Positions 1 to 15,169 are shown, counted from the first letter of the stretch. The stretch: DNA of 15,169 nucleotides from an uncultured archaeon (GCA_964583985.1 CAZOYD010000077.1:1-15169), one strand, 5' to 3'. Made by a program: numbers and translations. Notes: generated from the sequence alone by a model not told the origin.

Positions 1-1216
1 ATTCACCAATCAAGCTTACTGCGTTATCCAAATCTTCTTCTGTATGCCTATAACAGATATAACCGTGATGATAAGGTTGCAAAAATATTTTACGCCTGAT
101 TAATTGGCGATAAAATTCTTCCCTTAGTTTACGATATAAGTAATTAGGGTCAGAATCAAACGTGATGTATGGCATCCAAGGTTCTCCTGAAAATGTACAC
201 GGAACACCACTATCTTCTATTAATTGCTTAATTTTTTTCCCAAATATAGTTCCCCTTTTACGAATGACACCCAAAACATCATCTCTCTCCATTATTTCTA
301 TTGTCTTTAATGCCGCTACTTGTGGTAAACTATTTGGAAAGAAAGTCGAACTTAGAAACACTTCTTCTATCAAAACATCCATGATATCTTCCTTGCCAGC
401 AAGAAAGCTAATTGAATAACCGTTTGCCATCGCCTTACCGAATGCAGCAAGATCTGGTATTACTCCCAATTCTTTTTGAGCACCTCCAAGATTAACTCTA
501 AAACCAGTTCGTATCTCATCGTACATTAAAAGAGCCCCATATTTATCTGTTATCTCACGGAGCCCTTCTAAAAATCCAGGTTTAGGCATCTCTACTTCAT
601 GTCCTCCAGGATGATTAATCGGAGTAACGATTATGGCTGCTACATCATTGCCATAAGTACTCATCAGTTTAGTGACGTGCTCCAAGTTATTATATTCAAA
701 CTCGTATACATCCTCATAAAGTTTTTTGGGAATTCCTCCTTTATTTTCAACACACCAATCATGCCAACCATGATAACCGCAACGTAGAATTTTAGATCGC
801 TTTGTATAACCTCGAGCAACACGAATCCCAATAGTAGTTGCATCTGAGCCAGTTTTAACAAATACCATTTTTTCACAGCAAGGAATTAAATCCTTAAGTT
901 TCTTGGCTAACTTATTTTGTACTTGTTGAGTCAAGGACATGCAAAATCCCTTGTTCTTAATCTGATCTATTACAGCATTATCTATTTCTTCTTCTCTATG
1001 TCCAATTATAATGGGTCCATAAGCACACAACATGTCTAAATATTCATTTCCATCAACATCAATAACTTTTCCTCCTTTTGCTGTTTCAAAAAAGATGGGA
1101 TATTCTCCTTCAACAAAATTATATGGCCTTCTTATGCCTAGAATCGCACCAGGTATTAGATTCAAGGCTTCTTCATATAATTTAAACGATTTCTCCAAGT
1201 TCAATTTTTTAGACAA
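1..1216 (-). CDS. kat: Class III PLP-dependent aminotransferase (GSA-aminomutase-like), most similar to 3-aminobutyryl-CoA aminotransferase; 3' end runs off the window
   Basis: Not in the ORF track. Manual translation from TTG at 1216 (AGGAGA RBS at 1223-1228) is open to the window edge: MSKKLNLEKSFKLYEEALNLIPGAILGIRRPYNFVEGEYPIFF...DVDGNEYLDMLCAYGPIIIGH...KTGSDATT...GYHGWHDWCVE...YDEIRTGFR...PDLAAFGKAMANGY (PLP lysine)...FLSSTFFPNS...WMPYITF...QPYHHGYICYRHT. The class III motifs are clear. The Kat assignment rests on recalled similarity to the Cloacimonas enzyme (GIRRPYNFVEGEYPIFF, QPYHHGYICYRHT), not on a search. Confidence 0.85.
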   Translation of the reverse strand, partial: MSKKLNLEKSFKLYEEALNLIPGAILGIRRPYNFVEGEYPIFFETAKGGKVIDVDGNEYLDMLCAYGPIIIGHREEEIDNAVIDQIKNKGFCMSLTQQVQNKLAKKLKDLIPCCEKMVFVKTGSDATTIGIRVARGYTKRSKILRCGYHGWHDWCVENKGGIPKKLYEDVYEFEYNNLEHVTKLMSTYGNDVAAIIVTPINHPGGHEVEMPKPGFLEGLREITDKYGALLMYDEIRTGFRVNLGGAQKELGVIPDLAAFGKAMANGYSISFLAGKEDIMDVLIEEVFLSSTFFPNSLPQVAALKTIEIMERDDVLGVIRKRGTIFGKKIKQLIEDSGVPCTFSGEPWMPYITFDSDPNYLYRKLREEFYRQLIRRKIFLQPYHHGYICYRHTEEDLDNAVSLIGE

Positions 1217-1369
1217 TTTGAATCTCCTAAAAATAATACTTATTGAATTAATCAGTATGAACTATTATTATTGAATATTTTTAAATAAGTAATTTCAATC
1301 ACATGAAAAGTTATCAAATAATATTTGGCTTATATTGAACAATAACAACCAAAATCATCAAACATAGAG

Positions 1370-1394
1370 AAAATAGAAGAAAGATCAAAAAAAA
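1370..1394 (-). terminator. Putative oligo-T archaeal terminator downstream of the 528-aa gene
   Basis: The minus strand reads T8 followed by ...TTCTATTTT shortly after the TAA stop at 1409-1411. Confidence 0.4.
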
Positions 1395-1408
1395 GGTAAC
1401 AGTAAATA

Positions 1409-2995
1409 TTACCAAATTAAATTGTAAATAACAGTTTTTGCTTTTTCCGCTTCCTTTTTGCCTAGAATTTTATTTATTCTTAAATCATTAATTGCTTCTT
1501 CAAGTTTGGTATCTAGGTTTTTCATTTCCATCAAATTTCCTTTTTCTCCGCCTTTTTCAACAAGATTAATCATTGCATTATCTTTATTCATGAGATCTCG
1601 AAGTTTCGTTCTAAACGCATCGGTTACTTTTGTTTTTTGAACCTTACCATTTTCAACCAATAATGGCAGAACAGGAGCTCGTTCAGTGGTTCTTCTGGTA
1701 TTTGGGTCTACAAAATAGAATATAAACATCGGTATTCCCACAACCACATTTTGAGTGTTGATCTCAATGGAATAACGTTTAAAAAAGTTCTGCACATTTC
1801 CCATTTCAATATCTTTTATATATTCTATATTATCCAAACAACTTTGTTTTTCTTGTTTAACTTTAGCTACATTTGTCTCAGTAGTAGAGAGATTACTACT
1901 TAATTCACTATGTTTCGCTTGAATCTTACTTTCAACTTCAGATTTTTTTTGCTCTAATTCTCGAATCTTTTGCTGTTTGGACTTTTCCAAATCTGAAATT
2001 TCTTTCTGAACATTTTTCTTCAATTGAGTGATTTCAGTATTATACCTACTAATAGAATTTCCTAGATCTTGGTACTTTATGCCTAAATCGTTTAAAGCAC
2101 TTTCCACTTCAAAAAGATCATTCTTATTAATTGCTGCTTTAAGACGATCAACACTATTCTTGATTGAATTATTGTTATTATATAATTCACTCGTTTTATC
2201 ATTAATTTTATACTTACCGCTTTTTACCAGTTCTTCAGGAGTACTCTCGATTTTTTTAGCTTTTTCAGCTTCGATTTCCTTGGTAAGTTGAGCAAGTTGT
2301 TTCTCTTCTTCGCTAGTATCAATTTTTTTACTTCGAATTTTATCGGCGTCTTGAGCACCTCTTTGCAACCATTGATCACAGAGCTGTATTATGACTTGTC
2401 CATAATTATCGAGCATTCGCACATCTTGTTGTGAAATATAATCGAACACCTCCTGAACGATTTTCGCTTGATTAATGCTCTTAGGAATTGGATCACCTTC
2501 TAATAAAAAATGAGGTTCACCAAATGAATTCAAACTATATTGATTCAAGAAAAAATTCTTAAAATATTCCACTTCATCAGCACTGAATAAAGCTTCTTGG
2601 ATAACCGTCCCTCTCCTAAAATTTTTGGACTTTTTGAGATATGTTGCGTTATATGATTGTAAGGAGCTCAAGAATGTATCTATATCTGATCCCTTGATTA
2701 AATTTTCAGGGTTCGGTGGCACTTCTGCGAATTTGCCTACGCTTAATTTTTCTTGTTTATTAAGTAAATAACTGCACACACACGCCCTTGTTTCATTTAA
2801 CGGAATCAAGCGAACTGGCCAGAAACAAATACTTATTCTATTGATCTTTCCTAACTTCTTCAGAGATTTAGCATAAATATTTATGCATTCGTTTAAAGCC
2901 ATAGCCATTTCGTCTAATAAAGTCGCTTTACTTCGCGCCGGGATAATTTCACCAATATTTATCAAGAAAGGGATTATTCGATCTACATTTGCCAT
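1409..2995 (-). CDS. Hypothetical protein, 528 aa, with a long central coiled coil between two globular segments
   Basis: Long ORF. A K/E/Q/L-rich heptad-like region spans about aa 205-395 (EEEKQLAQLTKEIEAEK...ITQLKKNVQKEISDLEKSKQQKIRELEQKKSEVESKIQ). No Walker A motif and no TM helix were seen. Confidence 0.85.
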   Translation of the reverse strand: MANVDRIIPFLINIGEIIPARSKATLLDEMAMALNECINIYAKSLKKLGKINRISICFWPVRLIPLNETRACVCSYLLNKQEKLSVGKFAEVPPNPENLIKGSDIDTFLSSLQSYNATYLKKSKNFRRGTVIQEALFSADEVEYFKNFFLNQYSLNSFGEPHFLLEGDPIPKSINQAKIVQEVFDYISQQDVRMLDNYGQVIIQLCDQWLQRGAQDADKIRSKKIDTSEEEKQLAQLTKEIEAEKAKKIESTPEELVKSGKYKINDKTSELYNNNNSIKNSVDRLKAAINKNDLFEVESALNDLGIKYQDLGNSISRYNTEITQLKKNVQKEISDLEKSKQQKIRELEQKKSEVESKIQAKHSELSSNLSTTETNVAKVKQEKQSCLDNIEYIKDIEMGNVQNFFKRYSIEINTQNVVVGIPMFIFYFVDPNTRRTTERAPVLPLLVENGKVQKTKVTDAFRTKLRDLMNKDNAMINLVEKGGEKGNLMEMKNLDTKLEEAINDLRINKILGKKEAEKAKTVIYNLIW

Positions 2996-3133
2996 TTATA
3001 TCACTTTAGGATTCTATATTAAAGTTTTAATGGAATCATATAATTAAATTTATGTTTTCAAAATTTTGAAAAAAACTAATATAAGAGTATGTTCCATTTA
3101 TTCTCATTAAAAATTATAAATAATTGAAAGAAC

Positions 3134-3958
3134 ATGTTGAATGAGAAATTTTTATCAGGCAAAGGAGCACTAATTACGGGAGGGGCATCTGGATTTGGTC
3201 GTGGAGTTGCTCACGCATATGCAAAAAGAGGTGCAAATTTGGTTTTAGTCGATGTAAATAAAGAATTATTGGATAAAACGAGTACTGAAATAAAAAAAGA
3301 ATATGGAGTTAAAGTAATTCCGATAATTTGTGATGTATCAAAATCAGATCAAGTTGAAGCCATGGGAAAGGAGGCATTCAAAGAATTAGAGAATATTTTT
3401 ATCTTGTTCAATAATGCTGGAATAGGAACATCCTATGGAAGAAATATATGCCGAATTAAAGAAGCGGATTGGGATAAAATCATGGCTGTTAATCTTAAAG
3501 GTCAATGGTTAGTCGCCAGAGCTCTTTGGAGGAAAATGAAAGGTCAAACATTTGAGAACGAAGAACTCTCAGGAAAAATGATAAACACTGCTTCTGCTGC
3601 GGGTTTAGTTGTAGACCCAGCATTACCTGATTACAGTATCACAAAGGTTGGAGTCATTGCCCTCACAGAATTATTGGCTAAAACTTTAGCCCCTAATATC
3701 ACTGTAAATTCTATTGCTCCTGGATTTCACCTAACTGGAATTTATTTAAATGATGAAGAAGCAATGCGGGTTACTATGCGAGATGGAAATTTAAAAATTC
3801 CACAGCAACGTATAGGTACTGTTGAAGATATAGTTAATATGATGTTATTCCTTGCATCTCCCTTGTCAAATTATATTACAGGGCATTGTTTTCCTGTGGA
3901 TGGAGGAATGTCAGAAGTAGGTGTACCACCATACAAATTAAAAGATATAAAGTACTAG
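3134..3958 (+). CDS. Classical short-chain dehydrogenase/reductase (FabG-like SDR), probably NAD(H)-preferring
   Basis: TGGASGFG nucleotide-binding motif, acidic residue after beta-2 (LVDVN), NNAG, catalytic S and YxxxK (TAS...YSITK), VNSIAPG, and a C-terminal ITG..FPVDGG. Confidence 0.93.
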   Translation: MLNEKFLSGKGALITGGASGFGRGVAHAYAKRGANLVLVDVNKELLDKTSTEIKKEYGVKVIPIICDVSKSDQVEAMGKEAFKELENIFILFNNAGIGTSYGRNICRIKEADWDKIMAVNLKGQWLVARALWRKMKGQTFENEELSGKMINTASAAGLVVDPALPDYSITKVGVIALTELLAKTLAPNITVNSIAPGFHLTGIYLNDEEAMRVTMRDGNLKIPQQRIGTVEDIVNMMLFLASPLSNYITGHCFPVDGGMSEVGVPPYKLKDIKY

Positions 3959-3983
3959 GATACAATTAAATAAATAATGAAAT

Positions 3984-3999
3984 AAAAAAAACAAAAAAA
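3984..3999 (-). terminator. Putative oligo-T terminator for the 865-aa gene (convergent gap with the SDR)
   Basis: Two T-runs on the minus strand within about 25 nt after the TAA at 4007-4009. Confidence 0.4.
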
Positions 4000-4006
4000 T
4001 TAGTTT

Positions 4007-6604
4007 TTATTTATTTTCTTTTTTTTTGGTAGATTCAGGAATTCTCTTTAATTCTTCAAAACCAGAAGGAAATAGATTAGTAAGTTTCCGTGGTGTCGTA
4101 TCGTATCCATTTTTTCTCATTATCTTATAGAGTTTTTCAGAATTGTATTCATAAGAATAATCCATTACTTCGATTGATAAAAGCATGTAAGAGAATGAGG
4201 TGAGGAATGGTGTTCCATAGAACATTACTATTAAAAGAAAAATTCCAAATATAAACATAAAAACTGCATTTGAATCATTTCCTGTAAAAAATCCTGAAAA
4301 ATCCACTGTCTGAAAAAAAGAAAAAAAAGTAATAACAGCTGAAAATCCAGCGATACCTTTTACAATTGATTGAGCCCATATACTGATAGGTTCAATATCT
4401 CCAGGTTTTCTATGTTTCTTTGATTCAAGATAATAAGCAATTCCAGCATCATCTAGTAAATAGTTTCCCGAAATAAAAAATGAAAATATTATGAATGTGA
4501 GGACCATCGGAATAATAGATAATAAATTATACCCGATCATAAATAGGAAGAATTCTTGTCCACCAAAAACATCAAATGTTTGAGGATACCCAAATATTGG
4601 TGAGAGTGAATTGTAGGAGTAGAATCCTATTGCCATTGAAAGAAGTAAGGGAAGGATAACTCTTTTGAGTCTAATAATGGTGCTTAATTGTCTCCTATCT
4701 TGTAGATCTTCAACAAAAATTGCATATTTATGACTCTTTGAAAACTTGAAAAAGAAACTGCGAAGCGATATAAAACCATAAGCAAATTGAGGTGCAAATT
4801 GATTATAAATACAAGCTGTTAAAGGAAGTAACCCAAACCAAATAATTGTTGTAGCAGTATATACAATCGTAAGACCTGTCATGGAGTCCCCAGCAATCAA
4901 TGTCCTATTGAAGATGTTTAACATCAATAAGAACATGACGAAACTAATTGTCATTAATGCTACTACTACAACATTTACAGCAACAGCCATTTTACTTTGT
5001 TGTAATCTGTTTCGTTTTGGTTTTATCTTCTTTCCATTAATAATTATTACTATCAGACTAAAAACGAGCATAATTGCAAGAATTATAAAGATGGTAAGTC
5101 CCGGTTCGAATATAGGAGAAAGCCAAATGGGAAATGGTTTTTGAGTGGAAATGGCTGTTATTTTATCACCATCTTCAAAAGCATAATCTTTTTTGCCATC
5201 ACCATCAATATCGGGAATAGTGATAATATTCGATATATGATAATCAATATTAATTAATGCTAGTTCAGTATTTGATATCGGATCAATTATTATAAATCGA
5301 CTTCCTTCTTGTCCGGTCAACGTAGTATGTCTAATGGTTAGCAAAATTTCATCGCTATTATCTCCAGTAAAATCTTCTTCTATTACGAAACATCCCGGTA
5401 ATTCTTCATTTTCATCAGGAGTAAATTTATAATACTGCCAAATAATATCGTGTTCAGTTAGAGAGATAGAATAAACATATGCAAAGTATTCCCTTTCATC
5501 ATAAAGAGATATACTAATTAACACGTGAGCAATTCCATCATCGATCTGAGTATTCATTGCGGTTACATCAGCTGTATTATCAGTTATTGGTAAATTAAAA
5601 TAATCGAGAAGATTTCCATCCAAACCATTCAAAATGCTTACATTTCCTTCCCATGAAATTGTTAAAATCTCGTGAATCCCATCAAGGTTGAGATCTTCCA
5701 CAAAACAAAATGTATTGATATATAATCCATTTTTAACGAATATTGGATCTAATAAATTGTCTATGCTCTTATTATATAAGATAATACCATCATTCTTGAG
5801 AAAGATGACATTATTTTGACCATTGTAATCAAATTCTCTTATTGTTGGAAAAGTCGAATCATAAAAGACATAAGCACTCGAGGTAGAATTCATAAAAATC
5901 GATTTAGTTCTAGTTCCATTAATAAAATAGGTGGAAATATTTACTAGATAATTTTCACCAGGAAAATTATAATATTTTCCTTCTAATAGAATAAAATCTT
6001 CGATATTATCACCAAGATCACTGACTCTAATAACACCTAAGATCAAATTTGTAGAAATAATCCCTGAAAGTGAGCTTCCATCCTCTCCACTTATTATTAT
6101 ATTTGTAAAGTTATTATGAATAATCATAGGTCTCATTCGGGTTCTATTATCAGAACCCTCTGTATAAATATCCCAAGATTCATTGACTTTCACCATATTT
6201 GCAAAAAAATCTTCATAACCATCTGAATTAATATCTCCTATAGGATAAAGACTCCGAACTGGTGTAGTATATTCTTTTGACCATATTTTCAACCCTGTTA
6301 TTCCATCAATAGCGTAAATCCCTCCATATCTCGGGGTATTATAAGTATACTTGTTTACATCATCTAAATCTATATCTCGAGTATACATGTTCACAATTAT
6401 ATCTGAAACTCCATCATTATTTAAATCTCCAGTAAGTTGCATATCAAAATTAACAGGATATTGATTAGAAACATCATCCCAAGTATACCCCGGAATAAGT
6501 TCCATTTGAGTGACAAAAATTAATCCTAGAGATCCGAAAACGAGAAATGAAATCGCCAGTAGAATTATGTTTACAGGGTTCTTTAGTTTCATTGCTCTTT
6601 TCAT
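4007..6604 (-). CDS. Membrane protein: N-terminal signal/TM helix, FG-GAP/VCBS-like (Ca-blade) beta-propeller ectodomain, C-terminal multi-pass (~7 TM) domain
   Basis: Repeated DxDxDG-like loops (GDLNNDGVSD, GDINSDGYED, SDLGDNIED, EDLNLDGIHE, EDFTGDNSDE, PDIDGDGKKD) and 'AIDGITG..IWS' blade ends. Hydrophobic N-terminus. About seven hydrophobic segments follow aa ~500, the first followed by a basic KKIKPKRNR stop-transfer stretch. Confidence 0.85.
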   Translation of the reverse strand: MKRAMKLKNPVNIILLAISFLVFGSLGLIFVTQMELIPGYTWDDVSNQYPVNFDMQLTGDLNNDGVSDIIVNMYTRDIDLDDVNKYTYNTPRYGGIYAIDGITGLKIWSKEYTTPVRSLYPIGDINSDGYEDFFANMVKVNESWDIYTEGSDNRTRMRPMIIHNNFTNIIISGEDGSSLSGIISTNLILGVIRVSDLGDNIEDFILLEGKYYNFPGENYLVNISTYFINGTRTKSIFMNSTSSAYVFYDSTFPTIREFDYNGQNNVIFLKNDGIILYNKSIDNLLDPIFVKNGLYINTFCFVEDLNLDGIHEILTISWEGNVSILNGLDGNLLDYFNLPITDNTADVTAMNTQIDDGIAHVLISISLYDEREYFAYVYSISLTEHDIIWQYYKFTPDENEELPGCFVIEEDFTGDNSDEILLTIRHTTLTGQEGSRFIIIDPISNTELALINIDYHISNIITIPDIDGDGKKDYAFEDGDKITAISTQKPFPIWLSPIFEPGLTIFIILAIMLVFSLIVIIINGKKIKPKRNRLQQSKMAVAVNVVVVALMTISFVMFLLMLNIFNRTLIAGDSMTGLTIVYTATTIIWFGLLPLTACIYNQFAPQFAYGFISLRSFFFKFSKSHKYAIFVEDLQDRRQLSTIIRLKRVILPLLLSMAIGFYSYNSLSPIFGYPQTFDVFGGQEFFLFMIGYNLLSIIPMVLTFIIFSFFISGNYLLDDAGIAYYLESKKHRKPGDIEPISIWAQSIVKGIAGFSAVITFFSFFQTVDFSGFFTGNDSNAVFMFIFGIFLLIVMFYGTPFLTSFSYMLLSIEVMDYSYEYNSEKLYKIMRKNGYDTTPRKLTNLFPSGFEELKRIPESTKKKENK

Positions 6605-6811
6605 ACCTTGATTTTTTTTAAATTTAGGTATTATAACATACCAAACATCATTATTTCTTATTAATTTAAGGTTTATTTTGAAATTTCAATATATAATTCT
6701 AAATAAATGTCGAAAAAATATGGAATAGACAAACTTTTTTTATTTACAATTTTATTCTAGCTTGATTTCAATTTTCAATATAATACTACTATAAAATGGA
6801 GGATTTTTAAA

Positions 6812-7225
6812 GTGTTAAATTTTATATTTGCTATTTTGCAGATAATAATAGCGATAGGTTTGATTGGTTTCTGGACTATGTTCTATATCACAGAATATAA
6901 GAATAAGGACAGGAAGATGTCAGAAGTAGAATTCAAGCATGAACTGTCATTTCCTCTACCAGATCTTGGATGGGTTCTTCCTAATTTAATTATCAGTTCA
7001 ATTGGACTTCTATTGAGTGAGTCTTTTGGCTACTTCTTTTCTATTACTGCCGCGAGCGGAATGATGTTTTTAGGTTTGATAGACTTAGCTTTTAATCTCC
7101 AAAATGGGGGATTTAACATTAAAAAGCATGGATTTGATGCTTACATGAGCATTTTTATTGTCTCGATAATGTTAATTTTGGGTCCAATATTTTTAATTTT
7201 TGGATGGTTCAACATGATTCTATAA
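6812..7225 (+). CDS. Small integral membrane protein (~4 TM), function unknown
   Basis: GTG start with GGAGG RBS at 6798-6802. Four hydrophobic segments with an HELSFPLPD loop. Ends 21 nt before the next co-directional gene. Confidence 0.85.
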   Translation: MLNFIFAILQIIIAIGLIGFWTMFYITEYKNKDRKMSEVEFKHELSFPLPDLGWVLPNLIISSIGLLLSESFGYFFSITAASGMMFLGLIDLAFNLQNGGFNIKKHGFDAYMSIFIVSIMLILGPIFLIFGWFNMIL

Positions 7226-7246
7226 ATTAAATATTGAAAAGAGAAG

Positions 7247-8107
7247 ATGCATATGGTAGATGAAAAACTACTTAAAAGGCAACCATTTAAGGAAAGATCT
7301 GCAATAATTTGTGGGGGCTCCCAAGGAATCGGAAAAGCTATTGCAAAGCTATTTGTTCAGTTGGGCGGTAATGTGTGTATAGTAGCAAGAACTTTAGATA
7401 AGTTAAAAGCGGCTGCTGAAGAGATAAAAGGGCTAAAAGTAAACGAGAATCAAATTGTAGAAATCATTTCTTGTGATACATCAAACATGGAACAAGTTGA
7501 TTCATTATTTAATGAATATATAAAAAATTTTGGAGTTCCGAATTATCTCTTTAACATTGTAGGCATCTCATTACCTGACTATACTGAAAAATTAACCATC
7601 GAAAATTTCAGATTCCACATGAATACTAATTTCTTTGGGCAACTATGTCCTATAAAAGCGCTGTTACCTCATTATATAAAGCAAAAAGAGGGATATTTTA
7701 TTAACATGTCTTCTGTAGCAGGATTTATTGGTTTAATGGGTTATGCAGCGTACACACCTACAAAATTCGCGATTGTAGGACTAAGTGAAGTATTAAGAAA
7801 CGAATATAAAGCAGATAACATCAGTGTTTCCATGGTTTTCCCCCCAGATACTGATACCCCAGGACTTCATGAAGAAGCTGAGACTCGTCCAGAGGAATTA
7901 AATATTATTTCAGAAAGGGCCGGTCTTCTCCAACCAGAAGAAGTTGCTGAAACAATCCTTAAGGGCGTGTTAAAAAAGAAATTATACATTTTTCCGGGCT
8001 CAGCTAAATTTTTATGGAGAATGATGCGCTTCTTTCCAAAATTAGTTCATTGGGTCACGGATGGTGATCTTAAAAAGGCTCGAAAAAAGTTAGGCAAAAA
8101 TAAATAA
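7247..8107 (+). CDS. SDR oxidoreductase, 3-ketodihydrosphingosine reductase (KDSR/Tsc10)-like subfamily, probably NADP(H)-preferring
   Basis: CGGSQGIG, basic residue after beta-2 (VART), SSVAGFIGLMGYAAYTPTKFA (S...YxxxK) and the FPPDTDTPG motif that I recognise from KDSR-like SDRs. Amphipathic C-terminal helix. The start could be the second ATG (7253). Confidence 0.85.
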   Translation: MHMVDEKLLKRQPFKERSAIICGGSQGIGKAIAKLFVQLGGNVCIVARTLDKLKAAAEEIKGLKVNENQIVEIISCDTSNMEQVDSLFNEYIKNFGVPNYLFNIVGISLPDYTEKLTIENFRFHMNTNFFGQLCPIKALLPHYIKQKEGYFINMSSVAGFIGLMGYAAYTPTKFAIVGLSEVLRNEYKADNISVSMVFPPDTDTPGLHEEAETRPEELNIISERAGLLQPEEVAETILKGVLKKKLYIFPGSAKFLWRMMRFFPKLVHWVTDGDLKKARKKLGKNK

Positions 8108-8112
8108 AAATA

Positions 8113-8745
8113 TTATTTTTTTTCTTTTTTAGCAAATATATATCTTAAGAGATGTGTATGGGGGCCTAATTCTCCATGATTCTCGTGATCTTCCATTAAC
8201 CCTGTTTCTATTATTAAATAATCTTTGAAATGTTCTTTTAAATCAGCTTCTGTGAAGTAATGAGTGGGCCTAAAGGGTTTACTTTCGAAAGTACTTGATT
8301 CGATTCGTTTTCCTTTTCCAAAACTTTCCTCCTTATCGGAAAATACTGTGAAAAATACATGCCCTTTAGAACTCAATTGTTCATAACATTTCTTTAAGAA
8401 TGAGATACGATTATTTTTTAGAAGTAAATGTAATACATTATGGCAATAGATCCCATCATATTTATCATCATTAAAAGGCATTTCTAATACTGAACCTTGA
8501 AAAAATTGAGTTTTAGGGTCGAAATTTTTCGCGATCTTTATAGCAAAATCAGAAATTTCAATTGCATTTACATCTAAATAAGCATCCGTAAATAACTTCG
8601 TATTGCGACCATAACCTGCGCCTGGAACTAAAATCTTGTTAACTTCATGCCTTTTAAAAAGCTCAAGGGCATGATATGCGGTTTTACTCGGTTTGGTTCC
8701 CCAAATTTTACCTCCATCAATGAATCGTTTCTCCCAATATTCCAT
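8113..8745 (-). CDS. Class I SAM-dependent methyltransferase
   Basis: Motif I ILVPGAGYGRN, acidic motif II (AIEIS), GSVLEMPF..KYDGIYCHNVLH, and LSSKG (L.pgG-type motif). Confidence 0.92.
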   Translation of the reverse strand: MEYWEKRFIDGGKIWGTKPSKTAYHALELFKRHEVNKILVPGAGYGRNTKLFTDAYLDVNAIEISDFAIKIAKNFDPKTQFFQGSVLEMPFNDDKYDGIYCHNVLHLLLKNNRISFLKKCYEQLSSKGHVFFTVFSDKEESFGKGKRIESSTFESKPFRPTHYFTEADLKEHFKDYLIIETGLMEDHENHGELGPHTHLLRYIFAKKEKK

Positions 8746-8823
8746 AAAAAGATTAATTTTCCTTGTTAAATATGTTTTTATTGGTTAGAAAAATCTTAAT
8801 CAAAAAATAGTTATTTGGCACAC

Positions 8824-9927
8824 ATGAGATTATTTGGATTTATTGTCAATCCTGTAGCTGGAATGGGCGGATCTGTTGGCTTGAAAGGAACCGATGGAGA
8901 CTTGTATAAAAAGGCTTTAAAAATGGGTGCTAAATCCATTACTCCAGAATTAATAGAACAATTTCTTGTTGAGATTAAAAATAAAGATAAAATAACCTTT
9001 TTAACCGCACCAGGTATAATGGGTGAGGTATATCTAAAATCCAAGCAATTTAATTATGATGTAATCGGACAAATCGAAGAAGAAACATCTTCTAATGATA
9101 CTAAGAATATAGCAAAATTGTTACTCAAAGAAAAAGTTGAGTTAATTGTATTTTTTGGAGGAGATGGTACCGCTCGAGATATATTTGATTCGATCGGTTT
9201 AAATCTCCCAGTTATTGCAGTACCTACAGGAGTTAAAATGTTTAGTTCAGTATTCGCAATTAATTCAAGAGCAGCAGCCCAATTAATTGACGCTGTGATT
9301 TTGAATAATCTTGATTTTGAAGAAAGAGAAATCTTGGATATAAACGAAAGTTCTTATAATAAAGGAATTTTGGATTCAAACCTTTATGGGTACCTAAAAG
9401 TACCAAAAGTACCGAATTTGATACAAACGGGTAAAGACACCTCAATAACCGGGAATGTTAATGAAATTAATAAAAAAGAGATTGCACTCCATATAATAGA
9501 GACTATGAAAAAGGATGTTCTCTATTTATTAGGGCCAGGTACTACTGTGAAAGCGATAACAGACCAATTAAATTTACCAAAAACGTTGCTGGGTTTAGAT
9601 GCAATATATAACAAGCAAGTTATTGAAAAGGATTTAAATGAAGAAGATATCCTTAAACTTTTGGAGACATACAATCAAGTTCGAATAATTGTTTCTCCCA
9701 TTGGTGGTCAAGGATTCATTTTTGGGCGGGGTAATAAGCAATTTACTCCTAAAATAATAGAGAAGATAGGAAAAAAAAATGTAATTATTATTTCGACGAA
9801 AGATAAATTGAGATCGTTAAAATGTTTAAGAATTGATTCGACAAATATAGAAATTGATGATTTATTTAAAGGATTAGTCAATGTTGTGGCAGGGTTTAAA
9901 GAAGAAATTATATATCAAATTGAATAA
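8824..9927 (+). CDS. ATP-NAD kinase / AcoX-like family protein
   Basis: GFIVNPVAGMGG..GLKGTDG, GGDGTARD kinase motif, PTGVKMFSSVFA, GPGTT, SPIGGQGFIFGRGN. ATG at 8824 is preferred over the TTG at 8815 used by the ORF track. Confidence 0.9.
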   Translation: MRLFGFIVNPVAGMGGSVGLKGTDGDLYKKALKMGAKSITPELIEQFLVEIKNKDKITFLTAPGIMGEVYLKSKQFNYDVIGQIEEETSSNDTKNIAKLLLKEKVELIVFFGGDGTARDIFDSIGLNLPVIAVPTGVKMFSSVFAINSRAAAQLIDAVILNNLDFEEREILDINESSYNKGILDSNLYGYLKVPKVPNLIQTGKDTSITGNVNEINKKEIALHIIETMKKDVLYLLGPGTTVKAITDQLNLPKTLLGLDAIYNKQVIEKDLNEEDILKLLETYNQVRIIVSPIGGQGFIFGRGNKQFTPKIIEKIGKKNVIIISTKDKLRSLKCLRIDSTNIEIDDLFKGLVNVVAGFKEEIIYQIE

Positions 9928-9942
9928 TCAGAATTAATATAC

Positions 9943-9960
9943 AAAAAAAAATAGAATAAG
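9943..9960 (-). terminator. Putative oligo-T terminator of the adh-aor operon
   Basis: The minus strand reads CTTATTCTATTTTTTTTT immediately after the aor TAA. Confidence 0.5.
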
Positions 9961-11838
9961 TTATATAATATTTAGTTCTTTTAGTTTTTCTTCGGTGGGG
10001 GCTCCTGTATTCCAGTCCCAACCTCTTAATTCATAATATTTCTTTAGATTAGGCTCTAAATCGAGAGTTATATCTACCGTTTTTCCAGAAGTCAGGACTT
10101 TTTTCACGTGACCCGGTAATCTATCATCTTCCCTAGTTATACCCAGTTTCACGTTAATCAAACGCTTGAGATTATTGATTCGTTCGCCAACTTTCATTAA
10201 TGATTTTTTATCATAATCTAAACCAGTGGAAGCATTGATAAATCCGACGATATGTTTAAAATCTGGATTTATAAATCCACAATTTACGGCTGAGTCATCA
10301 ATAGCGCGTAAATCTTGGAATGCCATGACTCCTTTCTCCCTACCTTTTATCGAATATCTATCTCCAGCTTTTATGCGTAATTTTGGATAAGCTAACAGTC
10401 CCAATTCAGTTGAAAACCAATCGCATTTTTCATGGTTAGCACCAACACAACATGTTATATAGCTTAATCCTTGCCCTGCAAATGCTCTTGGATCATGCAT
10501 TGGTATCTCTAAACCTTTCACGTGAGCCGCTAATTCTGGATCCACATCTAATTCTTTAGCCATAAATCGTACACCTTCTGCTAAAATTGCTCCAATTCCA
10601 TTTCGTGTCGAAATTTTATTGATTAACTTTAGGATTAATTCACCATTTCCCCATCTAATTTCATCCAAGTTTACTGTTTCTAGCTTTGCTTTAATCTCAT
10701 CGATAGCAAGATTATTTTCAACCAAATAAATCAAGAAAGCTATGCTTACTCCAGTAGAAATAGTATCAATTCCATAGACATTGCACATGTGATGGGCAAG
10801 AATCACGCTTTTTGAATCAAAAACCCCACATAATGGTCCAAATGCACCCACGGACTCATATTCTGGTCCATCTACGCGAATTTCTTTTTCATTTTCTACA
10901 ATAACGGTAGTTTTTCCACACCTCATCGTGCATCCTGCACAACCATAGTCTAAAACGGCATATTCTTCTTTGAGAGTTTTTCCAGATAATTTTTCAGCAA
11001 GAAATTCCGTTTCAGTAAAGTAATATCCTGAAAGATCTCCAAGAGCCATTCCAATATCTAAATAACAATTAGTACCATACAATGTAAATAACATTGGTAC
11101 CATTTCTTTTAGCAACACTCCTTTTTTCGCGTCTTCTGCTTGTTTCAAAAACTCCTTACCAATATCGGGATCAGCTATTTTAACTGGACTAGTACCGTGG
11201 ATTGCTATAGCTTTTAAATTTTTTGAACCCATTAGGGTTCCCATGCCACATCTCCCTACTGCCCTCCCTTCATCATTGATAATACAACCGTATTTAACAA
11301 GGTTTTCTGCTCCAACTCCAATGGTAGCTACTCGTAAATTATTATTTTTTAATTCTCTTTTTATGAGTTTTTGAGTTTCATAAGTATCTCTTCCCCATAA
11401 ACTGTCAGCGTCCTTGAATTCAATAGATTGATCATGAATATATATATAAACAGGATTTTTTGATTTTCCGGTGATAACAATAGCATCATATCCGCTATTT
11501 CGTAATGAAATACAGAAAGTTCCACCAGAACTTCCTTCTCCCCAAATTCCAGTATGTGGAGATATCCCCGATACAGTATACCGACCTGAAGACGGTCTTA
11601 GGGTACCAGTTACAGGCCCCGTAGCAAAAATGAGAGGATTGATTCCATCCATGGGATCTTTCTTTAAAATTTCATAATCTTCATCTGATAATCGATCATA
11701 TATTAATTTCGCACTTAATCCCGTCCCTCCAAGATAATCCTTCGCGATCTGAGGATCCAATTCTTTGATTTCAACTTTCTGGTCATCTAAATCAATATAT
11801 GCAATTTTACCATTATAACCTATTAATTTTTCACTCAT
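9961..11838 (-). CDS. aor: Aldehyde:ferredoxin oxidoreductase family (tungstopterin, 4Fe-4S)
   Basis: YLGGTGL, ATGPVTG, SPHTG..GEGSSGG, GYDAIVITGKS, GRCGMGTLMGSKNLKAIA, CAGCTMRC Fe-S motif, GPEYES, YGIDTIS, HVKGLEIPMHDPR, distal Cys in DSAVNC, and YYELRGWD..G.PT. GGTGA RBS at 11845-11849. Confidence 0.95.
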   Translation of the reverse strand: MSEKLIGYNGKIAYIDLDDQKVEIKELDPQIAKDYLGGTGLSAKLIYDRLSDEDYEILKKDPMDGINPLIFATGPVTGTLRPSSGRYTVSGISPHTGIWGEGSSGGTFCISLRNSGYDAIVITGKSKNPVYIYIHDQSIEFKDADSLWGRDTYETQKLIKRELKNNNLRVATIGVGAENLVKYGCIINDEGRAVGRCGMGTLMGSKNLKAIAIHGTSPVKIADPDIGKEFLKQAEDAKKGVLLKEMVPMLFTLYGTNCYLDIGMALGDLSGYYFTETEFLAEKLSGKTLKEEYAVLDYGCAGCTMRCGKTTVIVENEKEIRVDGPEYESVGAFGPLCGVFDSKSVILAHHMCNVYGIDTISTGVSIAFLIYLVENNLAIDEIKAKLETVNLDEIRWGNGELILKLINKISTRNGIGAILAEGVRFMAKELDVDPELAAHVKGLEIPMHDPRAFAGQGLSYITCCVGANHEKCDWFSTELGLLAYPKLRIKAGDRYSIKGREKGVMAFQDLRAIDDSAVNCGFINPDFKHIVGFINASTGLDYDKKSLMKVGERINNLKRLINVKLGITREDDRLPGHVKKVLTSGKTVDITLDLEPNLKKYYELRGWDWNTGAPTEEKLKELNII

Positions 11839-11850
11839 AATTTATCACCA

Positions 11851-13143
11851 TTAAAAATCTATAGCTTTTCCCTCCCAAGCATATTCAAATATTTTTTTAT
11901 ACAAATCACTATTTACTGCTCGGTATGATGTAAGGCTAACAGCATCATCTTCCGCATAAGAAACCATCAAATCTAATTTTGACATGTACTCTGCTTTTGT
12001 AATTTCTGGTTTTCTTAAATCCCTAACACAAGTTGGAGCATCTATTGAATGTATAAAAGCTTTTAATTTTTCCATAAATTCCTTGAAAAGTTCTTCCCGA
12101 GGCTTATTCTCAACGGAAATATTAAAAATTGGACATAAATCTTGCCATCTATCGGTTACTTTTTCTTGGAACTCAATGGAATAGGGTAAGTACAATCCTA
12201 CGGCTAATCCATGATGAATTCCGAAGATCTTGCCGGCAGAATGGCCAAGGGCATGATCGATCCCAGGTACCGTGTTGCCAAAACCAATTCCGGCCATCAG
12301 TGCAGCCATGTGCATGTGATCTCTCGCTTCTATGTCTTTTGCACCATATTTATAAGCTCGTGGCAAATACTTTACTACTTCTTTTATAGCCGTGAAATTT
12401 ACGGCATCTAAATATGGAGATCCCCAATTTGAAACGTAACTACCCATTGCATGAGATAATGCATCTAATCCAGTACCAGCGGTTAGCATTGGAGGCATAT
12501 CTTTTACAAAATCAGTATCTAATATCGTGATATCTGCGGGAAATTCATCGCTCATCACTTCTAATTTTTTAGGTGGGTCTCTGGACGTGTCGGTTAATAC
12601 AGCTGCGGAAGATACTTCCGATCCAGTTCCTGACGTCGTTGGGATTGCTATGAAAAACCGAAATTTCCTTCTTAATCCCAATGATCCAAAATAAGGAAGA
12701 ATGTTAAATATGTTAACATTCGGATACTCATATTTAACCATAACCATTTTAGCGGTATCCATAACACTCCCCCCTCCCAGTGCAAATATAACTTGTGGTT
12801 TAAATTCTTCACAAATTTGAGCTCCTATATCTATTGTCGGAAGAGGTACTTCTGGTTCTGCTCCGGACCATATTTTATACTCCATTTCAATAAGATCAAG
12901 ATACTCAGTAACCTTTTTAGCATACTTTTGGGTAAATGAATCAGTAATTATTAAAGCTCTTCGATCTTCCTTATCAAACATGGCTTTTAAATAATTACTA
13001 ACTTGAAGTAGTCCTACTTTACCCTTATAAATGCGCGATGAAAAATAATTAGACATGACGCCACGTAGTGCCTTTCCGCCCATAAGAGCCATCATATCCT
13101 TTACGGTTTGGCTTTCATACCAAGCCGGTTGTTCTTTAGTCAT
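11851..13143 (-). CDS. Iron-containing (type III) alcohol dehydrogenase
   Basis: ALGGGSVMDTAK, IPTTSGTGSEV, and metal ligands in GLDALSH, DHALGH and IHHG. ATG at 13143 has GGAGG upstream and is preferred; the ORF-track start at 13161 is the alternative. 12-nt gap to aor. Confidence 0.92.
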   Translation of the reverse strand: MTKEQPAWYESQTVKDMMALMGGKALRGVMSNYFSSRIYKGKVGLLQVSNYLKAMFDKEDRRALIITDSFTQKYAKKVTEYLDLIEMEYKIWSGAEPEVPLPTIDIGAQICEEFKPQVIFALGGGSVMDTAKMVMVKYEYPNVNIFNILPYFGSLGLRRKFRFFIAIPTTSGTGSEVSSAAVLTDTSRDPPKKLEVMSDEFPADITILDTDFVKDMPPMLTAGTGLDALSHAMGSYVSNWGSPYLDAVNFTAIKEVVKYLPRAYKYGAKDIEARDHMHMAALMAGIGFGNTVPGIDHALGHSAGKIFGIHHGLAVGLYLPYSIEFQEKVTDRWQDLCPIFNISVENKPREELFKEFMEKLKAFIHSIDAPTCVRDLRKPEITKAEYMSKLDLMVSYAEDDAVSLTSYRAVNSDLYKKIFEYAWEGKAIDF

Positions 13144-13168
13144 TTTTTTTAATTCCTCCATAAATCAG

Positions 13169-13207
13169 TGAATTTCTTTTAAGAGTTCTGAAAATTGAAG
13201 AAATTCA
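13169..13207. repeat. 10-bp perfect inverted repeat upstream of the adh-aor operon
   Basis: TGAATTTCTT (13169-13178), a 19-nt spacer, then AAGAAATTCA (13198-13207). Confidence 0.55.
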
Positions 13208-13390
13208 ATTTTTAAAAAATAGTTATTTAAGTAATATATCTAACATGATAATAAATAAAGATTTATTTAACGTGATGATTTGAGAGGAGTATAAACCATT
13301 TATAGATAAAATAAATAACCTTAAAATAATATGTGATACAACACTATTTTGCATGTTATTATTTAACTACATAAAGAGAGAGAAAATAAA

Positions 13391-13630
13391 ATGGCATGGA
13401 CACCTCCAACAAAAATAACGGTAATATTTTCTTTTATATTCGTCGTTCTTGGATTAATTTTGTTAATTGAATTGATCTGGGGACCCATGGGTTTCTATAG
13501 CAGTTTACCATTATTAACATTTGCTGAACCAACTTTAAGTTCAAAGGATGTTTGGTACATTATTGGATTATTCCTAATGTTTTTTGCATGGTTTTTGCTA
13601 TTACTTGGAGTCCGTATAAAAGGTTTATAA
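13391..13630 (+). CDS. Small 2-TM membrane protein, function unknown
   Basis: 79-aa ORF in its own intergenic space with a purine-rich upstream region, two hydrophobic helices and a downstream T-tract. Confidence 0.8.
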   Translation: MAWTPPTKITVIFSFIFVVLGLILLIELIWGPMGFYSSLPLLTFAEPTLSSKDVWYIIGLFLMFFAWFLLLLGVRIKGL

Positions 13631-13638
13631 ATATTTAA

Positions 13639-13659
13639 TTTTTTTTTATTTTTTTATTT
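13639..13659 (+). terminator. Putative oligo-T terminator after the 79-aa gene
   Basis: Two long T-runs begin 8 nt after the TAA. Confidence 0.55.
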
Positions 13660-13739
13660 AATTGCAGATAAACAGTTAAACTTTTTTTAATTTAAAATTT
13701 AAAATATATCTAATTAAAGTGAAATTTGGACTAATAAAT

Positions 13740-14570
13740 ATGGAAATTAAAACGATTGCAATTATTGGAACAGGTTTTATGGGAGACCAAATTGCTTCAA
13801 GAGCAATATTATATGATTATAAATTAAGGTTGTATGATATCAGTGAAGACAATTTGGAAGTGATAAGAAAATCCCTTGTTGGCTTTTTAAGAAGAAGGCG
13901 AATGAAAGAAAAATTGGAGTGGATTAGTTTTTATAATGATCTTGCTAAAGCCGTAAGTGATGCTGATTTGATCATTGAGGCAATTCCAGAGGATTTAGAG
14001 TTAAAAAGGGACATTTTTTCAAAGATAGATGAACTGGCTCTTCCACATGCCATTATTGCTACAAATAGTTCTTCAATCCCTGTCTCAAAGATTGAAAGTT
14101 CGGTAAAAAGAAAAGGGCAAGTATTAAACATGCATTTCTATGCTCCTATCATTACGATGCCAATGGTTGATATAATGAGAGGTACTCAAACTACCGATGT
14201 CGTTTTTAATACTGGAAAAAAATGGATCGAAAGTCTCGAGTGTACACCATTAGTGGTTAAAAAAGAATGCTTGGGGTTTGTGTTTAACCGCGTGTGGCAT
14301 GCTGTAAAGAAGGAATGTTTAAAAATCTGGGCGGGTGGATATGCTGATATCGAAACTGTTGACAAGGCGTGGAAAATTTTTACAGGAATGGGTTTAGGAC
14401 CATTTCGTTTAATGGACGGTGTTGGCTTGGATACAATATACAATGTTGAGATGACTTATTTTAATGAAAGTAAGAATTTAGATGATAAACCTCCTAAAGA
14501 ATTACAAGAAATGGTAAATAAAGGTTTCCTTGGAAGAAAATCTGGAAATGGTTTTTACACTTGGGAATAG
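13740..14570 (+). CDS. 3-hydroxyacyl-CoA dehydrogenase family (Hbd-like)
   Basis: IAIIGTGFMG, ADLIIEAIPEDLELK, ATNSSS, MHFY (catalytic His), GFVFNRV, GPFRLMDGVGLD, GFLGRKSGNGFY. ATG at 13740 is preferred over GTG at 13719. Confidence 0.93.
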   Translation: MEIKTIAIIGTGFMGDQIASRAILYDYKLRLYDISEDNLEVIRKSLVGFLRRRRMKEKLEWISFYNDLAKAVSDADLIIEAIPEDLELKRDIFSKIDELALPHAIIATNSSSIPVSKIESSVKRKGQVLNMHFYAPIITMPMVDIMRGTQTTDVVFNTGKKWIESLECTPLVVKKECLGFVFNRVWHAVKKECLKIWAGGYADIETVDKAWKIFTGMGLGPFRLMDGVGLDTIYNVEMTYFNESKNLDDKPPKELQEMVNKGFLGRKSGNGFYTWE

Positions 14571-14582
14571 CAAAAATTTATC

Positions 14583-14597
14583 AAAAAATAGAAAAAG
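14583..14597 (-). terminator. Putative oligo-T terminator directly after the SECIS
   Basis: The minus strand reads CTTTTTCTATTTTTT immediately after the closing helix of the hairpin. Confidence 0.55.
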
Positions 14598-14664
14598 ATC
14601 CCTAATCCTTGCGGGTTGTCCCCAGACGTCTATCATTTATACATCCAGATCATCCTTATGGGAT
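14598..14664 (-). promoter_or_regulatory. Eukaryote-like SECIS element in the 3' UTR of the peroxiredoxin-like selenoprotein gene
   Basis: The minus strand reads AUCCCAUAAGG-AUGA-UCUGGAUGU-AU-AAA-UGAUAG-ACGUCUGGG-GA-CAACCCGCAAGGAUUAGGGAU. AUGA (14653-14650) lies opposite GA (14620-14619), AAA sits 11 nt after AUGA, the upper stem UCUGGAUGU/ACGUCUGGG has 9 pairs, and the lower stem is AUCCC/GGGAU. About 45% GC (30/67), far above the other intergenic regions. Confidence 0.85.
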
Positions 14665-15169
14665 TTAAAGTTTTGTATTAATTGCATCCATCATCATTTC
14701 AATTGAAGGTCTGTCAGTCTTAGTTTTTCCAAAATAGGTCCAAACAATTTTTCCTTCCTTATTTATGAGAAATTTACTCGGTACTGCTTGCTTTGATTTC
14801 AATGAACTCTCACCTACAGGAGCAAAACAATATACTTCATAATCACTTGCAATTTTCGCGTCATGATCAGCTATTATATCGATGGTAATTTTATTATCTT
14901 CCTTGAATTTTTTTAAAAACCTTACACTATCAGCAGCAATTGATATAATTTTGATAATTTTGATATCAAATTGAGATTGATTTTCGGATAATAAAACTAA
15001 ATGTTGTTTTCAACGATTTCACCAATTTCCTCTAAAAAAATCGATAAGAACTCCATTAAAGATTTTTAAAAGTTGAGTTAGAATGATATTATTGCCATAG
15101 ATGTCTTGCGTGTTGAATAATGGTGCGTTTGAACCAACTGGCAGACCTTTCGGTCTCGGCGGTTCTTCA
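14665..15169 (-). CDS. Peroxiredoxin-like (AhpC/TSA, thioredoxin-fold) selenoprotein with a UxxU motif; 5' end lies outside the window
   Basis: Not in the ORF track. Frame from 15168: EEPPRPKGLPVGSNAPLFNTQDIYGNNIILTQLLKIFNGVLIDFFRGNW-U-NR-U-KQHLVLLSENQSQFDIKIIKIISIAADSVRFLKKFKEDNKITIDIIADHDAKIASDYEVYCFAPVGESSLKSKQAVPSKFLINKEGKIVWTYFGKTKTDRPSIEMMMDAINTKL*. TGA codons at 15019-15021 and 15010-15012 align with the Cys residues of the family's FYRGxWCxxC motif. Family features continue after the TGAs (ISIAAD, IIAD, AVPSKFLINKEGKIVW, DRP). Confidence 0.9.

Follow-up and report, generated by a model that had tools for sequence, protein, structure and literature searches.

At one edge of the window, by which we mean the entire 15,169-bp contig C77 of an uncultured archaeon, a truncated reading frame is broken by two TGA codons, and a hairpin begins directly behind its stop codon. 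The locus raises the question of whether these are the remains of a damaged gene beside an incidental fold, or rather a selenoprotein gene accompanied by its own SECIS, and in the latter case to which of the known kinds of SECIS the element belongs.

The interrupted frame and the element behind its stop codon

The frame (14665..15169 (-)) is that of a PrxL.1-type Prx-like (AhpC/TSA, thioredoxin-fold) selenoprotein gene, the 5' end of which is lost at the contig end. Read from 15168 downwards, 167 codons are open with the two TGAs as the sole interruptions, and the frame is closed by a TAA (14667..14665 (-)). A Pfam AhpC-TSA match (PF00578, E 6e-21, residues 11-143) spans both TGAs, and a Redoxin match likewise runs across them. 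The first in-frame UGA (15019..15021 (-), predicted Sec 50 of the partial frame) takes position one of the redox box, and the second (15010..15012 (-), predicted Sec 53) the second redox position, so that both redox Cys positions are occupied by TGA and the box reads W-U-N-R-U. Homologues have WUxxC or WUxxU at the site of the first UGA, and UxxU forms are found in further genomes too. An AhpC/TSA-Redoxin fold with U-x-x-U in place of C-x-x-C is what sets PrxL.1 apart. With interruptions confined to the two redox Cys positions and a SECIS behind the stop, the selenoprotein call made earlier for this gene holds, and what appears as a "stop-interrupted" truncated frame at a contig end is gained for annotation as a real two-selenocysteine Prx-like gene.

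The PrxL gene converges with a 3-hydroxyacyl-CoA dehydrogenase gene (13719..14570 (+)), from which it is separated by a spacer of 94 nt. Its neighbours are redox and fermentation genes, encoding this dehydrogenase, an Fe-ADH, an aldehyde:ferredoxin oxidoreductase, two SDRs and an NAD kinase. No in-frame TGA was found in the other genes of the window, and none of the 11 long ORFs of positions 1..14570 that end inside the window stops at TGA (nine end in TAA, two in TAG).

The element itself (14598..14664 (-), with all coordinates of its parts on this strand) begins at the base immediately 3' of the TAA and comprises three helices. The lower helix, P1, is opened by AUCCC (14660..14664), which pairs with GGGAU (14602..14598) at the far end of the element. 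A joining strand AUAAGG (14659..14654) then precedes AUGA (14650..14653), the 5' half of a proposed tandem G.A kink-turn core. The upper stem, P2, is formed by UCUGGAUGU (14641..14649) and ACGUCUGGG (14621..14629), 14649..14641 pairing with 14629..14621 in nine pairs, four of them G.U and none mismatched. It carries an 11-nt apical loop, AUAAAUGAUAG (14630..14640), with A at four of its first five bases, AAA at loop positions 3-5 (11 nt after AUGA) and AG at its end. On the 3' side follow GA (14620..14619), the other half of the proposed core, and an invariant C, these three bases occupying 14618..14620; then a side hairpin, P3, of the form AACCC-GCAA-GGAUU (14604..14617), as placed by alignment to the covariance model R2 described below; and, after a single A, the 3' strand of P1 (14598..14602). 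The letters after GGGAU read CUUUUUCUAUUUUUU, and an oligo-U tract, CUUUUUCUAUUUUUUGAU (14580..14597), lies directly 3' of the element, within the 27-nt space before the dehydrogenase stop.

Most of this anatomy had been noticed in the original prediction: the start at the first base after the stop codon, the AUGA-N11-AAA-...-GA arrangement, the nine-pair GU-rich helix, AUCCC/GGGAU and the U-tract are all read directly on the (-) strand. Its estimate of about 350 nt between the UGAs and the element is likewise in keeping with 366 nt for the first and 357 nt for the second UGA, counted from the last base of the TGA to the first base of AUGA. It missed the invariant last G of the loop, the invariant C after GA and the side hairpin at 14617..14604. 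As judged from the letters, AUGA and GA would form the G.A pairs of a kink-turn-like core.

P3 is weak in the window copy (four pairs plus one C.A mismatch, closed by a GCAA loop), and it is absent from the plain MFE fold of that copy, in which other pairings are preferred. The folding energy is unremarkable against shuffles (z -0.5 with the element taken whole, -1.8 with its upper hairpin alone and +0.26 with another slice), these MFE z-scores being uninformative here, as is expected when the G.A core is not modelled in folding. Congruent with the earlier observation that the space behind the UGAs lacks a stable hairpin, none was found in the 60 nt after either of them (MFE -4.7 and -3.7 kcal/mol, z +0.5 and 0.0).

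The host and its selenocysteine machinery

The genome (3.8 Mb, 31.7% GC) encodes the components expected of a Sec-using archaeon, several of them clustered on one contig (G000:C27:14433-20957; L001/L005/L006). Here a tRNA-Sec scoring 59 bits, above the Rfam family cut-off (G000:C27:19492-19580 (+)), is adjoined by SepSecS (C27:19800-20957 (+)), and an EFSec-like gene is located at 14433-15320 (-). A PSTK-like gene is recognised by a full-length match (E 3e-46), though under the curated NCBIfam cut-off. The SelD gene carries one in-frame TGA itself and is followed by a type II-like AUGA...GA element (L014 ~1305-1383 (-), that is G000:C24 ~29335-29413) composed of AUGA, a 6-bp stem, AAA, a CAC/GUG ministem and UGA. 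A closing helix (AUGAUG/CAUCAU) and a side hairpin are present here as well, so that SPS-type SECIS seem to share the three-arm layout. Matches to PF01248, the L7Ae family, are restricted to two small ORFs of 123 and 127 aa, and an SBP2 homologue was not found in the genome with this query. Genome-wide reassignment of TGA was considered and rejected, TGA serving as an ordinary stop at the end of 291 of the 1579 long open frames (18%).

The original prediction had pointed to an Asgard host. A genome of the same genus (G239, JAEOSU01) is recorded as a Promethearchaeota archaeon MAG, and we take Promethearchaeota to be identical with Lokiarchaeota/Asgard. Because of this same-genus genome the Asgard host stands, and together with the archaeal/eukaryal-type Sec machinery it confirms that the MAG is a Sec-using Lokiarchaeon. 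The NCBI taxonomy ranks Promethearchaeota as a phylum within the archaeal kingdom Promethearchaeati.

How far the element exceeds chance in this genome was assessed with a strict pattern, consisting of ATGA, 9 bp with at most one mismatch, 11 nt, and GA or AA. It occurs 45 times in the genome compared with 23-31 times in each shuffled 3.8-Mb genome, which corresponds to a chance expectation of about 4e-4 per 100-nt UTR. A single match is weak evidence because shuffles alone yield 23-31. The excess consists of matches with an A-rich loop ending in AG, directly behind frames with an in-frame TGA: four VhuD/MvhD-like genes, a VhuU-like ORF (DCULSCAAH), the PrxL gene and two small ORFs. Fifteen elements from another genus, without that of the window, served to build the covariance model R2, which comprises the helices P1, P2 and P3. 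This model scores the window element at 43.3 bits (E 7e-8 with 175 kb searched, E 1.5e-6 for the whole genome), and across the whole 3.8-Mb genome it matches seven sites only, every one of them behind a UGA-containing frame and in several unrelated protein families.

Some of the matches in this genome lie behind small frames. The top R2 match (L095:1502-1583 (+), G000:C52:8146-8227; 44.3 bits) follows a small ORF encoding a one-helix membrane protein, ...IDEGGG-U-GCLIIPH..., with a single in-frame TGA. Another SECIS-model match (L093:1501-1584 (-), G000:C7:63418-63501; R1 55 bits, R2 40.5 bits) has GUGA as its core and, on the 3' side of its stem, a bulged C; about 40 nt upstream of it, an ORF of about 37 codons with CxxC...CxxC (zinc-ribbon-like) ends in ...R-F-K-UGA-UAA, so that it might encode a small selenoprotein terminating in Sec, or simply carry a tandem stop. 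Three more strict-pattern matches have loops ending in AG (G000:C126:1121-1155 (+), C9:23491-23525 (+) and C93:4549-4515 (-)), the first behind a 148-codon frame with ...AHAD-UGA-UGA-ADNL... and the second behind a small membrane ORF ending at TGA. None of these three was recovered by the covariance models at E<=1.

Recurrence among relatives and what the element may do

When 399 genomes of the phylum were searched in six frames, PrxL homologues turned up in 91, all of which belong to the window's family or to a single sister family, and nearly every homologue contains one or two in-frame TGAs; a related-loci search with the single protein had yielded only two loci. From the homologues, 70 PrxL loci were taken and 74 gene ends examined. 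The strict geometry is present at the same place behind 58 of the 74 PrxL-homologue 3' ends, a count that allows up to two stem mismatches and some variants of stem and loop length. R2, applied over 75 sources, recovered 84 elements, namely that of the window and 83 further ones, mostly at PrxL-homologue loci; the set includes most loci missed by the pattern as well as, from the window's genome, the elements behind VhuD, VhuU and the small ORFs. Six of the most distant PrxL homologues, five from the sister family f3 and one (L081) from the window's own family, had no strict-pattern match. R2 later matched L081, and the five f3 loci stayed unmatched.

The f3 homologues (L079, L080, L082, L083, L084 and L085) have in-frame TGAs, but neither a lokiSECIS-pattern nor an R2 match. 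In one of their flanks (L084:795-865 (+), genome G143; z -3.0) the predicted fold comprises a closing helix, a stem of 11 bp and a UGCAAC-looped side hairpin, but AUGA is missing right at the foot of the stem. Tandem PrxL paralogues, WUxxC beside WUxxU, are common among the relatives (L045, L046, L048, L053, L056, L060, L061-L067, L077 and L078), each paralogue with a complete SECIS of its own, in contrast to hdrA-vhuD pairs, which share one element per pair.

The original prediction had named covariation in orthologous 3' UTRs as a check, and all three helices covary. In A1, a MAFFT alignment that holds 54 distinct sequences without gaps, 90.7% of the P2 cells are paired, compared with 27-60% when the partner strand is slid; two-sided changes are present in all nine pairs, and the covariation was reached by none of 500 shuffles. 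RNAalifold independently predicts eight of the nine P2 pairs on A1, the one missing being the core-proximal pair, and the pair adjoining the core is often non-canonical among relatives. Constrained folds of the relatives brought out the recurrent three-helix layout. In the R2-fitted alignment of the 84 elements (A3), the paired cells amount to 83% for P1, 90% for P2 and 90% for P3, with two-sided changes in 22 of 23 pairs. These include nine of nine model pairs of P1, where strands such as ACCCC/GGGGU and UCCUAA/UUAGGA replace one another, and four of five pairs of P3. The paired percentages lean upward, A1 having been picked by pairing pattern and A3 fitted to a model; this selection has no bearing on the invariance of the unpaired bases, on the constant position or on the score of the independent model. 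Shuffling of the flanks gave a modest contrast, since AT-rich sequence forms pairs readily: P1 is present in 54 of 58 flanks versus 64% of shuffles, and P3 in 47 of 58 versus 50% (mean z -2.2).

The unpaired bases are close to fixed throughout. AUGA, GA and AAA, expected earlier to be conserved behind orthologous TGA-containing genes, are so in 82 to 84 of the 84 elements: the first A of AUGA in 83 and its U, G and A in 84 each, the loop AAA in 83-84, and of the GA-C the G in 82, the A in 84 and the C in 84. To these are added a G two bases upstream of AUGA (83/84), the last G of the loop (84/84) and the A before it (74/84). The window copy holds every one of the near-fixed unpaired bases. Such invariance of unpaired bases amid covarying stems is, as judged from the aligned sequences, the signature of a motif recognised by a protein or the ribosome, not of a mere hairpin.

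This bears directly on a first alternative, according to which the hairpin is a mere terminator, or a 3'-end stabilising structure common to the two convergent genes, with no recoding role and with AUGA, GA and AAA incidental in an AT-rich spacer. A run of at least five T is present within about 22 nt after 65 of the 84 elements, compared with 2 of 84 in the 30 nt upstream, and such runs would fit a terminator, as would the 94-nt convergent spacer with its oligo-U tract and the unremarkable folding energy. A plain terminator does not need, however, the unpaired AUGA, AAA, last loop G and GA-C that stay near-invariant while the stems vary, and the R2 matches across the genome lie behind nothing other than UGA-containing frames of unrelated families. 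A scan for bacterial-type terminators, blind to archaeal oligo-T, finds nothing here. Termination behind the element is moreover compatible with a SECIS, without conflict between the two, and we consider a hairpin devoted to transcript ends alone to be very improbable.

An AUGA/GA tandem G.A core is the generic signature of L7Ae-binding kink-turns, and L7Ae-family genes are present in the genome, so a kink-turn RNA with another job has to be weighed as well: a box C/D-like sRNA, or an L7Ae-binding site that regulates translation or stability, with UGA read-through brought about by other means. Rfam indeed returns box C/D matches in the region, but at E 2.3-9.1, and their 8-16 bits fall short of the gathering thresholds (43-80 bits); their main basis is an AUGAUGA run within the coding sequence, and we rejected them, along with the other Rfam matches in this E range, as chance. 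The element has no guide or D-box architecture and is tied to selenoprotein genes only, which leaves a kink-turn of unrelated purpose just as improbable as the terminator. Binding of L7Ae within a SECIS mechanism would belong to the main explanation. Lastly, the notion of a chance motif beside sequencing or assembly errors or a pseudogene mark, to which the 23-31 strict-pattern matches of shuffled genomes and a truncated gene on a short MAG contig might lend some colour, is effectively refuted, and its probability negligible, given about 4e-4 matches expected per 100-nt UTR and yet the same position behind 58-plus orthologues, TGAs exactly on the two redox Cys positions that recur in 91 genomes, the covariation and the R2 matches.

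We consider it highly probable that the element serves as the SECIS in the mRNA of a Prx-like selenoprotein from a Lokiarchaeial (Promethearchaeota, Asgard) host, and that it belongs to the published lokiSECIS or Asgard type I eSECIS-like class. As a working SECIS, it would operate as follows. Transcription would pass through the element and stop at the oligo-U tract just behind it; oligo-T is the archaeal transcription terminator, and the tract at 14580..14597 is likely such a signal. The 3' UTR of the mRNA would then fold, P1 closing the element, P2 presenting the A-rich 11-nt loop and P3 standing as a small side hairpin, while AUGA and GA at the base of P2 would form the tandem sheared G.A pairs of the core. 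This fold may recruit the archaeal EFSec/SelB with Sec-tRNASec, either directly or via a putative SECIS-binding factor, and the ribosome would read both UGAs, some 360 nt upstream, as selenocysteine, one element serving the two. The predicted product is a thioredoxin-fold protein with a U-x-x-U redox box, capable of a diselenide.

The third arm deserves separate mention. P3 is observed in the PrxL, VhuD, VhuU and SelD elements of the window's genome and in the relatives, it adjoins the invariant C, its loop has a consensus around GCAA, and the layout is reminiscent of a k-junction. We tentatively suggest, as an idea that in our estimate falls somewhat short of probable, that the Loki/Asgard SECIS is a three-way junction, in which the covarying P3 is inserted between closing helix and G.A core on the strand without the bulge, and that this arm could be the docking site of an Asgard SECIS-binding factor and would have been lost towards eukaryotes. 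The 84 aligned elements, with their invariant G-N-AUGA, loop AAA, last loop G and GA-C, provide a target list for the search for an archaeal SECIS-binding factor.

Relation to known SECIS classes

With the bacterial SECIS the element would share the recoding of UGA to Sec. It differs in that a stable SelB-type hairpin, expected within about 40 nt of the UGA, follows neither UGA in the 60 nt folded, and the host has SepSecS, not SelA.

The eaSECIS of Methanococcales and Methanopyrus is closer, being likewise a 3' UTR element in archaea with the PSTK/SepSecS pathway; AUGA and GAC/AAC are ascribed to the methanococcal VhuD SECIS, too, in the main text of Mariotti et al. (2016, PMC4989117). The window element lacks, in contrast, the GAA_A bulge and the GC-clamped stems: a loose model of the asymmetric GAA_A bulge after Huang 2024 gave no match in the 148 nt from the stop codon. 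The definition of the lokiSECIS class is a bioinformatic one, and in a Methanococcus maripaludis reporter a lokiarchaeal SECIS showed no activity (PMC11881835), a further difference from eaSECIS.

The original prediction had spoken of a eukaryote-type SECIS. This stands for the AUGA/GA core and the apical AAA, and does not for membership of the eukaryotic family, the element being the Lokiarchaeota variant. A check with eukaryotic covariance models had been proposed. When all 4227 Rfam families were run over the window, and again with relaxed filters over a slice of 161 nt, neither RF00031 (SECIS_1) nor the related SECIS models matched at E<=10. The likeness comprises the position in the 3' UTR, the presumed action at a distance, the AUGA_GA quartet, the unpaired apical AAR and a lower helix closing the internal loop. 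On the other side, the stem of the window element is shorter, its loop is fixed at 11 nt with an invariant last G, an invariant C follows GA, a hairpin is added on the 3' strand of the internal loop, and SBP2, the long L7Ae-domain SECIS-binding protein, was not found in the host with PF01248, in agreement with PMC4989117 and PMC11227280. The element thus has the core and the predicted manner of working of a eukaryotic SECIS, yet it is a member of lokiSECIS and not of the eukaryotic family.

The lokiSECIS, as defined in the main text of Mariotti et al. (2016, Mol Biol Evol 33:2441, PMC4989117), is found in PrxL, VhuU and HdrA-VhuD genes close to the stop codon and consists of AUGA, a 9-bp stem, an 11-nt loop and, after the stem, GA (AA in VhuU); the first five bases of the loop are A-rich, and its last G, usually after A, is ultraconserved. 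According to the same text, these elements escape the SECIS models of eukaryotes, archaea and bacteria alike, and SBP2 was not found; PrxL.1 with both redox Cys replaced by Sec is described there as well. In the later catalogue by Huang, Xiao & Zhang (2024, ISME J, PMC11227280), which spans more than 400 Asgard genomes, eSECIS-like structures are given for 85% of 1439 Asgard selenoprotein genes, those of Prx-like genes being mostly type I.

The window element agrees with this class in its place just after the stop, AUGA and GA, the 9-bp stem, the 11-nt A-rich loop ending in AG, the recognition by a covariance model, the PrxL.1 host gene, the presumed use of one element for more than one UGA and the Sec-using Lokiarchaeial host without SBP2. 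The loop starts with AUAAA, not AAAAA, with AAA at positions 3-5 retained, and nothing essential differs. The encoded protein has, in its partial sequence, one extra Cys outside the redox box, contrary to a remark by Mariotti et al. In the main texts of the two papers, figures and supplements aside, the loki elements are presented only as a stem-loop with core or as two stems, with P3 and the invariant C unmentioned for them (PMC4989117, PMC11227280), and in that of Mariotti et al. GAC/AAC is mentioned only for the methanococcal VhuD SECIS (PMC4989117). The kind of element is accordingly one already published, of which the window holds one more copy in one more Loki MAG. Eukaryote-like SECIS have been known from Lokiarchaeota since 2016, and they are taken to indicate that the Sec-insertion signal of eukaryotes arose in archaea.
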